A DNA stretch of 64,000 nt from Candidatus Latescibacterota bacterium (GTDB taxonomy: Bacteria; Latescibacterota; UBA2968; GCA-2709665), in contig CBDCOX010000002.1 in the NCBI GenBank assembly GCA_965219995.1, forward strand, positions 4,096,001 through 4,160,000, written 5' to 3'. Positions 20,786-25,277 of the stretch are shown one piece after another. Positions within the stretch are counted from its first letter, which is position 1, and every line of letters begins with the position of its first letter. The notes beneath the pieces are model-generated. The model had not been told where the DNA came from. It saw only the letters and a program-made list of their open reading frames with translations, and ran no database searches. The translations under genes and the position numbers were made by a program.

Positions 20786-21550
20786 ATGTCACCCAAACCC
20801 CTCGCGGATCTTCTGGATCTGACCGGACAGGTCGCCATTGTCACCGGCGCCAGCCGGGGCATAGGAAAGAGCATTGCCGAGGTCTTTCACCAGGCGGGCG
20901 CCGGGCTCATGCTGGTCGCGCGCAATGCGGGCCCGTTGCATTCGGTCGCGGATGCGCTATCCGATCGGGGCGACGTGCTCGCGGCCCCGGCCGACGTTGC
21001 AGACGAGGCGCAGGTCAACGCCTTCGTCCAGGAGACCGTGGACACGTTCGGACGCGTGGACATCCTGGTCAATAACGCCGGCGTATCCAGCCCAGGGCCC
21101 TATACAGGCGTCGACCATGCCGAGTGGCAGCGGGTGATCGGCGCCAATCTCACCGGCGCGTATCTCTGCTGCCTGGCGGCGGCCCCCCACATGGAGAATC
21201 AGAAGAGCGGCCGGATCATCAACATCTCCTCCATCAGCGGCCAGACCGGGGGCGTCGCGGGCGGGGTCCACTATGGAAGTTCGAAGGCAGGAATGATCGG
21301 GATGACCAAGACTCTCTCTCGCGACCTGGCTTCGAGCAACGTCACCGTCAACGCCATCACCCCGGGCGTCATCGAAACGAGCATGCAAATCCCTCCCGAG
21401 ACCCGCAGCCGGATCAACGAACTCATACCTCTGGGTTACGTCGGCCAACCCGAGGAGATCGCTTATTCCGCCCTCTTCCTGGCCTCGCGGATGGGCGCAT
21501 ACATCACCGGCGCCACGATCGACGTGAATGGCGGGATATTGAAGAGATAA
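20786..21550 (+). CDS. SDR family oxidoreductase (FabG-like)
   Basis: TGASRGIG, NNAG, YGSSK motifs. Confidence 0.92.
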   Translation: MSPKPLADLLDLTGQVAIVTGASRGIGKSIAEVFHQAGAGLMLVARNAGPLHSVADALSDRGDVLAAPADVADEAQVNAFVQETVDTFGRVDILVNNAGVSSPGPYTGVDHAEWQRVIGANLTGAYLCCLAAAPHMENQKSGRIINISSISGQTGGVAGGVHYGSSKAGMIGMTKTLSRDLASSNVTVNAITPGVIETSMQIPPETRSRINELIPLGYVGQPEEIAYSALFLASRMGAYITGATIDVNGGILKR

Positions 21551-21554
21551 AAAG

Positions 21555-21785
21555 AAGCTATCAGCTATCAGCCGTCAGCTCAAATCAAAATCGAAAATCA
21601 AATTCAAAATCCCCTTTCCCCAAATTCCCTAAGGGCGGGGAGACGCAAGACGTGAGACGTGAGAGGATATCAGTGCCCAATGGTGTTTCTTGTCGTTACG
21701 ATAACGGTCGAGAAACAGGCACGGTTAGCGCGAAAACACTGTGGTGACGTTATCATCTACCGTCTTCCCTCTACCCTCTTACCGC
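21555..21785 (-). repeat. AGCTATC-type heptamer run plus modular repeat locus 4 (inverted B)
   Basis: AGCTATCAGCTATCAGCCGTCAGC, then heptamer arms enclosing the reverse complement of module B. Confidence 0.8.
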
Positions 21786-22126
21786 ATTTGCCTGGGCGCG
21801 GGGCCTGCTATATGCATAGCGCGAACCCCCTCACAGGATGCACAGGATCTGCTGCCCTGGCAGCAAAGGTGGCACATCAATCCGCGTCGCTGGACGGATC
21901 AGCGCGCTCTGCTCTGATAGCCGTCCGGTAAGGAAATACCTTTGTAGACTGGTTGGCACCTGTACGATGAGGAATTCCGTCGACTTGAAGCAAAGACATA
22001 CAGCGAGAGGCAAACAGCGGAATCTCTTTGAAGCCGTGAAGTTGGCCTTCCTGGGATGCCATTCGCCAGCTCCGATGTGTGGTTGTTGAAGGTATTCTGA
22101 GTGTGGACACCGAACAGGAGATAGAT

Positions 22127-23317
22127 ATGCAGACTGAACGAGAGAAGTGGAAGCCAGGTCCCGAAACGATTGAATCTCTGTCCTCGCTGATCCGGTCGAA
22201 ACCCGAGGAAGTGCGGTGGACGGAAATCGGCTGGGAGACGGACCTCTGGACGGCACGTCGCCGCGCGGCAGCGGTGAACAGACCGATGTTCATCTGGGCG
22301 ATGAACGGAAACCCGCTCGGCTGCGTCTGAAACAATGGCATCGCGGGCCGTGAGTCCGTTTTCTCCCATCCCGATATTATCCGGGTCCTCAACGATTCCT
22401 ACGTTTCCGTTGCGGACAACTGCAGCTACACCCAGACGCAGAAAGACGCCAAGGGCGAGTTCTTCCGCCTCGTGGCGGAACAGGGCCATTACGGCGGGCG
22501 CACAGAACCCACGGCCACCAGGCAGGGATTGTACGCGTGTACCTCGGAGGGAGAACTGCTGGGGTCCATCAACACGCGGGATGCCGCCCCGCTCCTGGAA
22601 GTGCTCGAGCAAAGCCTGGAAAGGTGGCGCCAGCGCCCGGCCGGGAGCGCGTCGGACGATATTCCCGATACCTATTCCGTCGATCCGAGACTCGGATGGT
22701 CCTATCCGGAAAACGGACTGGCGCTCAAAGTGACGGTCCGCGACCTCCCGCGGAATTCCGACGAAGTGGACGCGCGGCACAACATCGACTTCGCGTGGTT
22801 TACAGAGGAGGAGGTCCGGTCTCTGGTACCCGGGGATGCCCGGCAAGGCCGGACCTGGCGCGCGCCGGATTTCTTCACCAGACGTCTCGCCCTGCGCCAC
22901 TTCATCGACACGGTCCGCGGGCAGTCGCCCGGATGGCGGGAGGAAAACCTGAAGGACGGAGAGTTCCGGCTGACCGTCGAGTCCGCCGAAGCCGATCTCA
23001 TCCGGCTCCGCATAGACGGACGCATCCACCTCGAAGCGGAACCCACGTATGAAACGAATCCCTTCAGCAAGCTTACGGTGGACAAGCCACGGGGTCTGAA
23101 CCTGATCCTCTACGGCATGCTCGCGTTCGATTCCCGGCGGCGGACGGTCGAATCCTTCGACGCCGTCGCGACGGGCGACCGCTGGGGATATACCACCTAC
23201 AACGTGCGCTTCGACGATCCCGGCCCGGCGCCCATCGGTTTCGCGTTCGAACTCGCGTCGGACGATCCCATCGAACGCACCCCGCCCGCCTCCATCGGGC
23301 GGAACTACTTCGCCTGA
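22127..23317 (+). CDS. Putative selenoprotein (C-V-U68) with a SelenoN-like thioredoxin-fold N-terminal domain, 396 aa
   Basis: AGGAG RBS and ATG 22127. The TGA at 22328-22330 is followed by 47 stop-free codons in frame with ORF 22472-23317: MFIWAMNGNPLGCVUNNGIAGRESVFSHPDIIRVLNDSYV. Hairpin immediately 3' of the UGA. Confidence 0.78.
22335..22369 (+). promoter_or_regulatory. Candidate bacterial SECIS element
   Basis: Stem GCGGGC/GUCCGU with a CGUGA loop starting 18 nt after the UGA (G at loop position 2); possible lower stem AUGG/CCAU. Confidence 0.5.
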
Positions 23318-23349
23318 CGCGTCATCGCCGAAACACGTACAGCAAAACA

Positions 23350-23386
23350 CGCCCCCGCAACGGCTTGTCGAGACGTTGCGGGGGCG
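23350..23386. terminator. 13-bp GC hairpin, probable terminator between convergent units
   Basis: CGCCCCCGCAACG-11 nt-CGTTGCGGGGGCG; T-rich tail on the minus strand. Confidence 0.6.
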
Positions 23387-23397
23387 CGTGTGTTGGG

Positions 23398-23536
23398 GTG
23401 GGGCAGACATTCCCGTCTGCCCGCATCGCTCAAAATGAAAGGTCGGCCGATCGCCGAAACTGTCATCCTGAGGAAGCTGCCAGGCCTGCCGGCGCGAATC
23501 ATTGGCAGGCCGGCTGACGAAGGATCTACTGCGGCA
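23398..23536. repeat. Direct repeat, left copy (composite REP)
   Basis: GTGGGGCAGACATTCC.GTCTGCC...TGTCATCCTGAGGAAG...GACGAAGGATCTACTGCGGCA; the right copy is at 24186-24298. Confidence 0.85.
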
Positions 23537-23605
23537 TCGGTTTACACCGGGCGCCTGGCATTCAATCGACGCAACAGGCGGCACGTATGCGCCCATACGG
23601 TCAGG

Positions 23606-23944
23606 CTAAGGTGGCGCGTGAGTTGACGGGATCCCGATATACGGGCATTTCGACAAGCTCAATGACCACGTTTTGGTAGGTGGTCTTCCACTCCGCTCGG
23701 GAGGGGTGAGTGAATATTCCGTCGATTCTTTATTCAGTGGATTTCGAACGCTACCTTCAAACGGGTCGGCGGTGTAATAAAAAATCCGATAGAGATCAAT
23801 CCCGCACAACTTACAGTGAGATCTTATTTTCTCAATTTGACTGAATATATCCTGAGCGGTTGGAGATTTCGCGCTCTTCCCATGTAGGTTCTTCTTGAAC
23901 CATTCGCCGTCAATGAGGATTGCATATCTATCGGGGAAACTCAT
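23606..23944 (-). pseudogene. Truncated NYN (DUF88/LabA-like PIN fold) ribonuclease
   Basis: YAILIDGEWF...LYRIFYYTADP...RNPL N-terminal motifs. The KGVD and GDSDF catalytic motifs are absent, the C-terminus runs into a REP (23641-23673), and GC is lower than the flanks. Confidence 0.7.
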
Positions 23945-23968
23945 CCATTGATGCTCGTATAAACGGTT

Positions 23969-24055
23969 GGCCCCCGCATTACGTGCATGCCTAAAGCCTG
24001 GATGCGTCCATCCAGGGTCGACATGTCTTTGGATGGGTGACGTAACGCGGGGGCC
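23969..24055 (-). ncRNA. Structured leader / candidate RNA antitoxin upstream of the NYN gene
   Basis: 16-bp outer stem GGCCCCCGCGUUACGU/ACGUAAUGCGGGGGCC and inner 8-bp hairpin CCUGGAUG-GACG-CAUCCAGG. Confidence 0.5.
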
Positions 24056-24087
24056 TAGATTTCTTCAGTGGCTCCAAGTTAAGATAA

Positions 24088-24116
24088 TATATACCCAGAC
24101 ATTGTCTCACTGTCAA
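24088..24116 (-). promoter_or_regulatory. sigma70 promoter driving the leader RNA and NYN gene
   Basis: Minus strand TTGACA-17-TATATA(TT). Confidence 0.65.
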
Positions 24117-24185
24117 GTTTATTTATCGAAACACCCCTACTCCCTTCGTGGTTTCCACACGAGCTCTGACGAAGTCGGCGTGAGA

Positions 24186-24298
24186 GTGGGGCAGACATTC
24201 CAGTCTGCCGGCGTCTGCCAAACCTGTTATCCTGAGGAAGCCGCCAGGCCTGCCGGCGAATCAATGGCAGGCCGGCTGACGAAGAATCTACTGCGGCA
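24186..24298. repeat. Direct repeat, right copy, overlapping the aldo/keto reductase stop codon
   Basis: Near-identical to 23398-23536 apart from an internal indel. Confidence 0.85.
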
Positions 24299-25277
24299 GC
24301 CGATGCGCCTCCATTCTTTCGCTGTAGCGAACGCTGGCCGCGTCGAGCTTCGCGCGCAATTCGGCCGGCAGCTTCAGCGCCGCACCGGCCAGCGTCTCAT
24401 CCACGTGAGCCGTGGACTCGGGACCGGCCAGCACCGACGTCACTTCCGGGTGATCCAGCACCCATGCGACGCAGACCTCCGCCCGGCTGACGTCCAGGGC
24501 ATTCGCCGCCTCGTCCAGTGCGGCGTGCATTTCCGCGAGCGGGGAACCCGGATCGGCCTCGAATCGGGGCGACAACTCGCCCGCATCCAGCGGGCTGTAC
24601 GCAATCACCCCGATTCCCTCGGCGCGTACGACCGGAAACATCTCGCGTTCCAGTTTTCGGATTCTGGACCGCCCGTCCGGTGTGAGCGTATAGCCCGATA
24701 CAGTGTAATAATCTTCGACAACGGACGGCGGACTCGTGCCAGCCCCCCGGGCGTGCGCGCAGCACGCCGTCACGAATGCCGCATCGTGGTTGGACAGGCC
24801 CCAGAAGCGCGTTTTCCCGGTTCTGACGAGACGATCCATCGATTCACAGATCTCCGCTGCGGGGGTCCCCTCGTCCGGCGAGTGCAGCAGATACAGATCC
24901 ACGAAATCGGTGCGCATACGCTTCAGCGAGCACTCGAGCCGCCGCGTCAGGAATTCCCGCGTGAATCTCGCCGGGCCGCTCCCGCCTTCATCGCGAGCGC
25001 GAGGATGTGTCGGCGGCACCTTCGTGCAGATGACGGCACGGTCCCGCCGGCCCTCCAGTACTCTCCCGAGCAACTCTTCCGAACCTCCCCAACCGTATTC
25101 CTGTGCGGTGTCGAAGAAGTTGACGCCCGCGTCCAGACAGTGCCGCAGCACCCGCTCCGCCTGTGGATCGCGCGCGTTCCGCTCCAGGTGACGGAAGGCC
25201 GTGCCCTGGCAGTAACGCGTTACCGCGAGATCGGTCCGTCCCAATCGCACCGGTGTCAGTGGTGAAGAGTGTTCCAT
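24288..25277 (-). CDS. Aldo/keto reductase
   Basis: LGRTDL.V, FFDTAQEYG.G.SEELLG, SLKRMRTDFVDLYLLH, GLSN, YSPL. Confidence 0.92.
   Translation of the reverse strand: MEHSSPLTPVRLGRTDLAVTRYCQGTAFRHLERNARDPQAERVLRHCLDAGVNFFDTAQEYGWGGSEELLGRVLEGRRDRAVICTKVPPTHPRARDEGGSGPARFTREFLTRRLECSLKRMRTDFVDLYLLHSPDEGTPAAEICESMDRLVRTGKTRFWGLSNHDAAFVTACCAHARGAGTSPPSVVEDYYTVSGYTLTPDGRSRIRKLEREMFPVVRAEGIGVIAYSPLDAGELSPRFEADPGSPLAEMHAALDEAANALDVSRAEVCVAWVLDHPEVTSVLAGPESTAHVDETLAGAALKLPAELRAKLDAASVRYSERMEAHRLPQ

Follow-up and report, generated by a model that had tools for sequence, protein, structure and literature searches.

In the E. coli fdhF type of selenocysteine (Sec) insertion sequence (SECIS), decoding depends on a hairpin within the coding sequence, close to the UGA on its 3' side, with G and U in the apical loop. 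The eukaryotic selenoprotein SELENON has an adjacent Cys-Sec pair (SCUG) at its site, and its Sec domain is preceded by an N-terminal membrane anchor and an EF-hand. A SECIS-like hairpin directly after the UGA of the SELENON mRNA is described in PMC12936836. For prokaryotes, Table 1 of a May 2026 review gives 119 selenoprotein families or subfamilies with model accessions (PMC13188914). Here we describe a gene at positions 22127-23317 of a 64,000-nucleotide (nt) stretch from a Candidatus Latescibacterota genome (assembly GCA_965219995.1, contig CBDCOX010000002.1, positions 4,096,001 to 4,160,000 of the forward strand), hereafter the window. A preliminary description made from the sequence had proposed one hidden selenoprotein gene at this place, and our analysis confirms the observation: 22127-23317 is a genuine selenoprotein gene, with TGA at the homologous codon of all 112 loci compared, a covarying hairpin behind it and the Sec machinery in the genome. 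The product is very probably one 396-residue selenoprotein with a thioredoxin fold and a SECIS-directed Sec at residue 68; a catalytic redox chemistry of the kind outlined below is more likely than not. It represents an apparently undescribed but real selenoprotein family, without name or known function and widespread in bacteria.

According to the list of open reading frames (ORFs) and the translation, the gene is a single plus-strand reading frame whose sole interruption is the TGA at 22328-22330. The six-frame ORF list splits it, in one and the same frame, into 22079-22330 (+) and 22472-23317 (+). The 47 codons between the two pieces (22331-22471) are in frame and free of stops, and the first in-frame ATG, GTG or TTG past the TGA stands at 22472. 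Translation from the ATG at 22127 with the TGA read as U yields 396 residues, including the site ...N-P-L-G-C-V-U-N-N-G..., and the gene's own terminal stop codon is TGA. In every locus from the same genus, an ATG lies 67 codons ahead of the codon for Sec. The split ORFs, the lone TGA, the 47 open codons, the 396-residue read-through product, the AGGAG and the hairpin were all found where the preliminary description had placed them.

We assembled 32 loci from 31 related genomes together with the best 80 of 166 relatives, the latter drawn from a bacteria-wide scan in which each species was represented by a single genome; genomes overlap between the two sets. Located by script, the codon at the Sec site reads TGA in each of the 112 loci, and neither TAA nor TAG occurs at this codon in any of them (one extra regular-expression match, in L073, is an off-frame chance match). 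The related-genome search gave matches in 31 of 41 genomes, and all 34 full-length matches contain exactly one internal TGA. Likewise, 43 of the 168 genomes in a scan of the phylum matched, with exactly one TGA in each of the 47 matches that span residue 68 (three further rows are fragments that fall short of the site). Ahead of the TGA the frame is open for 66 codons or more in every locus, and the protein sequence is conserved on either side of this codon, down to 35-40% overall identity. The terminal stop codon differs among loci (TGA, TAA or TAG). In the loci that we read, the flanks W-A-M-N-G-x-P-L-G-C-[VT]-U-N-N-G are nearly unchanged; Cys66 is kept in all of them except L064, which has Ala, and the Gly before Cys66 is replaced by Ala or Ser in some. 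No form with Cys at the Sec site was seen among the closer relatives, and to judge from their sequences the closer family members appear to use Sec without exception.

Genomes with the family are labelled as at least six phyla. The record titles of the best 80 of the 166 relatives name Candidatus Latescibacterota, Gemmatimonadota, Candidatus Poribacteria, Chloroflexota/Thermomicrobiales, Planctomycetota/Pirellulaceae, Armatimonadaceae and Bacillota. The Gemmatimonadota-titled copies are 78-81% identical to the window copy, and records with copies of this identity (L048, L049 and L052 compared with L044-L047) bear that title in some submissions and Candidatus Latescibacterota in others; the Gemmatimonadota label may be a labelling difference, and the taxonomic labels are used inconsistently. 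Some genomes of the phylum hold more than one copy, three paralogues in G017 and two each in G029, G078 and G091, every copy with its own TGA.

The hairpin GCGGGC/CGUGA/GUCCGU starts 12 nt past the UGA; its loop begins after 18 nt and has G at position 2. We made a gap-free alignment of the 54 nt that begin with the TGA for 91 distinct sequences, which are related to one another. When columns 15-21 are set against columns 27-33, 85.9% of cells pair, compared with 73.5% after shuffling, a level that none of 500 shuffles reaches. The covariation score is 0.446 against 0.230 for shuffled alignments (again 0 of 500) and at most 0.158 once the 3' arm is slid by 1-3 columns. Counting the seventh, outer pair, double-sided changes are present in 7 of 7 pairs; this outermost pair is weak, being unpaired in 53 of the 91 sequences. 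RNAalifold, with no structure supplied, returned the same six inner pairs from the 91 sequences, with compensatory changes in all six. A Planctomycetota/Armatimonadaceae subgroup (L109, L113, L114, L116, L118, L120, L122 and L123) has a shifted, longer stem with the loop near +30. Its members read L-A-C-T-U or L-G-C-T-U, with Arg-Arg after the site, and the shifted stem may be a variant SECIS.

The genome to which the window belongs encodes the components needed for Sec insertion. selA (473.8 bits) is adjoined by a SelB wing domain, and a tRNA-Sec with anticodon tca, found by aragorn, adjoins selB; tRNA-Sec, selB and selA are clustered at C2:1802578-1805869. selD (359.9 bits) lies elsewhere, at C2:2652925-2653848, and itself contains one internal in-frame TGA, with a hairpin shortly after that TGA at a distance similar to that of the window hairpin. 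Long reading frames on contig C2 end most often in TGA (819, against 382 TAG and 278 TAA), so the organism does not generally read TGA as sense. The preliminary description had taken the hairpin behind the UGA for a bacterial SECIS and had named as checks the alignment of homologues across a conserved TGA and the presence of selA, selB, selC and selD. The SECIS is borne out by the covariation in 91 sequences and by RNAalifold, the alignment by 112 of 112 loci, and all four sel genes were found.

Contigs from RNA libraries, belonging to a relative of about 93% identity, run across the UGA, X19 over 22146-22754 and X20 over 22146-22675. They come from two metatranscriptomic runs of one study, in which stretches without contig cover are uninformative. 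The bridging contigs are compatible with one transcript.

The 396-residue protein has no match in Pfam or NCBIfam at E <= 1, so that the family, described beforehand as unannotated, is indeed unnamed in both; a sequence search of the PDB with the single protein also gave no match. When Pfam was run on 50 family members, Thioredox_DsbH matched 3 of 50 (best E 0.031) and Thioredoxin_7 matched 1 of 50 (E 0.03). An AlphaFold2 model built on a 50-sequence alignment (predicted local distance difference test, pLDDT, 94.4; predicted template modelling score, pTM, 0.92) contains one thioredoxin-fold domain that spans the UGA, with strand 1 before it and helix 1 after it. Sec68 lies in the model at the N-terminal end of helix 1, the position of the attacking Cys in CxxC enzymes. 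The family profile reached a best E of 0.15 against the PDB, and its weak alignment to 3ira puts Sec68 on the first Cys of the CxxC. Gly71 stands in place of the usual second Cys, and the conserved Cys66 is found two residues upstream instead. As modelled, residues 1-175 are a thioredoxin fold of the Thioredoxin_7 / DsbH / AGR / UAS kind. The earlier placement of a C-x-U site in a thioredoxin fold therefore agrees with the model, which predicts it at the canonical active-site position. The C-terminal domain of unknown function proposed at the same time exists, but not at its stated size of about 280 residues: the thioredoxin-like part runs to about residue 175, leaving about 220. This all-beta domain is rich in invariant Arg, Asp, His, Asn and Trp, and for its approximately 220 residues we found no clear solved relative.

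A hydrophobicity scan, made ad hoc and distinct from a signal-peptide predictor, found a hydrophobic N-terminal segment in most Planctomycetota copies and three Poribacteria copies (L063, L068, L069, L079, L088 and L091-L123). The same scan showed no signal-peptide-like segment in the Latescibacterota or Chloroflexota copies, the window copy included. By this measure the window copy is probably cytoplasmic, whereas those of Planctomycetota and some from Poribacteria seem to be exported, and the same selenoprotein may work in different compartments.

We propose the following scheme. The UGA at 22328-22330 would be decoded as Sec by SelB and tRNA-Sec, directed by the small hairpin within the coding sequence that starts 12 nt downstream and would serve as a bacterial SECIS. 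By analogy with known enzymes, Sec68 would be the nucleophile that attacks an oxidised substrate, Cys66 would resolve the intermediate to give an internal selenenylsulfide, and a cellular reductant would reopen this bond and so recycle the enzyme. The beta domain of about 220 residues could hold the substrate or a ligand. The catalytic steps are modelled on the thioredoxin and selenoprotein literature in general, and on that analogy we lean towards a catalytic redox role.

A phmmer search over 1.84 billion representatives returned 1638 matches at E <= 0.001, of which the best 150 were examined. Of these, 13 span the Sec site and the other 137 start directly behind it, a starting point that identifies them as truncated gene calls. 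The 13 spanning homologues are TGA-free, full-length and 25-35% identical, and their residue at the Sec site is Cys (3), Asp (3), Ala (2), Ser (2), Gly (1), Asn (1) or Arg (1). Cys is found in P0149, P0163 and P0185, with P0149 reading C-T-C. The TGA-free two-domain unit stands behind a Ser/Thr protein kinase domain in P0149, P0153, P0155 and P0158, one of which also has Kelch repeats, and behind a FecR domain in P0238. One truncated gene call, within the set P0149, P0153, P0155, P0158, P0238 and P0139, precedes a PQQ-type beta propeller. These kinase and FecR fusions suggest a sensor role for the two-domain module. Among the other clusters, P0267 has a clear N-terminal signal peptide.

Several points weigh against the reading of the gene as a SECIS-directed redox selenoprotein. 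Taken by itself, the window hairpin is no stabler than shuffled sequence (z +0.60 for 22322-22400 and z -0.79 for 22328-22365), and the minimum-energy structure of 22328-22365 differs from the proposed hairpin; as the single sequence folds at chance level, the support for the hairpin is comparative. In the comparison itself, the structure put to the test had been taken from the window sequence, an advantage that the slid controls lack. An Rfam scan of 21500-24000 gave nothing at the hairpin and only three chance-level matches. Moreover, the loop CGUG also codes for Gly-Arg75, which is nearly invariant, so the conservation of the hairpin is partly at the protein level. The RNA contigs may stem from contaminating DNA and, as contigs, cannot prove a single transcript. 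Two clusters, P0077 and P0267, show Trp at the Sec site (G-C-V-W-N-N-G), and the DNA of neither was found in two metagenome scans. Ten of the 13 distant TGA-free homologues have a residue other than Cys at the site, so the fold is able to function with no redox residue there. The preliminary description had counted non-Cys homologues as evidence against a selenoprotein, and in form these ten are such evidence; but they are paralogues at 25-35% identity, Cys is present in three others of the 13, and the closer relatives all have TGA. Finally, we infer the catalytic scheme, the role of the C-terminal domain and the localisation.

In public gene calls the locus appears as two pieces, and it could in principle consist of two separate genes, or be a pseudogene, with a 67-codon upstream ORF followed by a downstream protein. 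The 137 of the best 150 representatives that start just past the site would fit this arrangement, as would the fact that most database matches cover only about 64-82% of the query. Nevertheless, the stop is always TGA at the exact codon (112 of 112 loci, never TAA or TAG), it is followed by a covarying hairpin, it falls between strand 1 and helix 1 of one confidently modelled domain, and the window offers no in-frame start until 47 codons past it. Two genes or a pseudogene are therefore extremely improbable. We give just as little credence to an alternative code or near-cognate read-through that would place Trp, Gly or Cys at the UGA. The genome has a complete Sec machinery, and TGA is both the commonest stop of its long frames and the codon that ends the window gene; the W carried at the site by P0077 and P0267, which would favour such decoding, is suspected to come from a gene caller set to a table with TGA as Trp.

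If a single selenoprotein is accepted, its role and its kinship still have to be weighed. Instead of an enzyme, it could be a binding module or one that senses a ligand or the redox state, with Sec tuning the sensing. The TGA-free two-domain paralogues attached to Ser/Thr kinases or following a FecR domain speak for this, as does the lack of Cys at the site in most paralogues of the kinase/FecR type. However, the C-x-U motif is strictly kept in the Sec-bearing clade, the stand-alone window protein has no output domain in Pfam or NCBIfam, and it is usually for the sake of catalysis that cells bear the cost of Sec; we regard a sensing role for the selenoprotein as unlikely. The preliminary description had also seen a parallel to SELENON. 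A bacterial homologue or counterpart of this eukaryotic protein would imply common ancestry of the thioredoxin-like Sec domain, with the in-frame hairpin corresponding to the Sec redefinition element of SELENON; both have Sec beside a Cys in a presumed domain of this type. The order of parts argues otherwise: in the window protein the Sec domain is N-terminal and the beta domain follows, the reverse of the SELENON order. In addition, the loci that we read have C-[VT]-U-N-N-G rather than an adjacent C-U, and the window protein contains no Pfam EF-hand or other family. A profile search among longer proteins gave five matches, all family members or fusions, and in a search with the region of the Sec site none of the 15 candidates scored at E <= 10; both are weak negatives, as exact shared words are needed. 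Our literature search found nothing linking SEPN1/SELENON with Poribacteria and nothing on bacterial SELENON homologues. We consider such a homology unlikely, and we hold the same low expectation of its corollary, in which the SELENON Sec domain would descend from a protein of this kind and its hairpin after the UGA would be a relic of a bacterial SECIS. An RNA hairpin directly past the UGA is nonetheless common to both, on the SELENON side according to PMC12936836. The label SelenoN is not justified on present evidence; if the kinship were true, the bacterial proteins would give convenient experimental access to the chemistry behind a human myopathy gene.

Taken together, these considerations leave a redox selenoprotein of a family of its own as our preferred reading. 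None of the 119 families or subfamilies in Table 1 of the review fits, in a comparison by Pfam, TIGR or NF accession that leaves a few cd- or PTHR-only entries outside (PMC13188914). Table S9 of PMC4807772 contains an unnamed 'hypothetical' selenoprotein candidate that could not be matched to the window family. We found no literature on the family, although the candidate lists in the supplements of other studies, such as a groundwater survey mentioned in the review, could include it. Public gene calls cut the gene at the Sec codon and name the pieces 'hypothetical protein', so that databases lack the half of the thioredoxin domain that holds the active site. With a name for the family, many annotations could be put right and the bacterial selenoproteome would gain a family. 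Naming it would also provide a defined target in the search for a Sec-dependent reaction not yet known, and perhaps a sensor domain that is new among bacterial Ser/Thr kinases. The TGA-free paralogues of the kinase/FecR type might further identify the two-domain unit as an extracytoplasmic sensor module of a new kind, though we consider this unlikely.

The features of the gene are collected in Table 1. The strong hairpin past the stop codon is possibly a terminator, one without a U tract; a consensus terminator scan did not flag it, and a promoter scan found no sites. Just beyond it, a short palindromic dispersed repeat occupies 23396-23429, for which blastn-short gave 61 matches in the same genome, mostly to a core of about 26 nt. 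In many unrelated contigs of the RNA runs this piece alone matches, and the sequence on either side of it is left unaligned. An antisense ORF (21899-23596, minus strand, 565 residues) spans the whole gene; it has no Pfam match and is likely a shadow frame in G+C-rich coding DNA.

Table 1. Coordinates in the window of the selenoprotein gene and its associated features.
Feature	Position	Strand	Remarks
Shine-Dalgarno-like AGGAG	22116..22120	+	6 nt upstream of the ATG; read from the sequence
Selenoprotein gene	22127..23317	+	396 codons plus TGA stop, Sec at codon 68; relatives match full-length with one internal TGA
N-terminal thioredoxin-fold domain, residues 1-175	22127..22651	+	As modelled: strand 54-59, C-x-U loop, helix 69-77
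Redox-site codons Cys66 (TGC), Val67 (GTC), Sec68 (TGA 22328-22330)	22322..22330	+	TGA in 112/112 loci
SECIS hairpin	22343..22359	+	6-bp stem 22343-22348/22354-22359, apical loop CGUGA 22349-22353; RNAalifold and covariation
C-terminal all-beta domain, residues 176-396	22652..23314	+	Unclassified fold family; many invariant polar residues
Strong hairpin	23340..23395	+	23 nt past the stop codon; fold -38 kcal/mol, z -4.69, 0/200 shuffles equally stable

Upstream of the gene lie two genes for topoisomerase subunits and an SDR gene; downstream are a 432-residue ORF without family and then an Ldh_2 gene. The 432-residue ORF (23967-25265, plus strand) has no Pfam family and is conserved only in fragments and only in genomes of the same genus. 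We clustered the flanking ORFs of 80 loci and saw no conserved operon and no neighbour hinting at function among them. SDR and Ldh_2 genes do lie near the gene in several phyla, but they are 26-41% identical to the window copies, no closer than within-genome paralogues, and we rejected them as functional neighbours.

Among known systems, SELENON differs from the window protein in having a transmembrane segment and an EF-hand, both of which the window protein lacks. The hairpin resembles the E. coli fdhF-type SECIS in lying within the coding sequence 3' of the UGA, here with a spacing of 12 nt, and in having G and U in its loop; it differs in its far shorter stem (6-7 bp), with no bulged U evident and no Rfam family. 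The window protein resembles the thioredoxin-type prokaryotic selenoproteins already listed in its fold, in having one Sec within a short Cys/Sec motif, and in its in-frame bacterial SECIS. It is set apart from them by matching no Pfam or NCBIfam model, a distinction drawn by model accession, not by sequences. The nearest known domains are those of Thioredoxin_7/DsbD-gamma-like, Thioredox_DsbH (DUF255), AGR and UAS proteins (3f9u, 3ira, 7tkv, 2ju5, 3ph9 and 2dlx), and the family falls below the Pfam gathering threshold for Thioredoxin_7 (PF13899) and Thioredox_DsbH (PF03190). Where these domains have CxxC, the window protein has C-x-U with Gly for the second Cys. Unlike them, the window family also adds a conserved insert of about 30 residues (A-E-Q-G-H-Y...T-R-Q-G) and joins its thioredoxin fold to a novel C-terminal beta domain.
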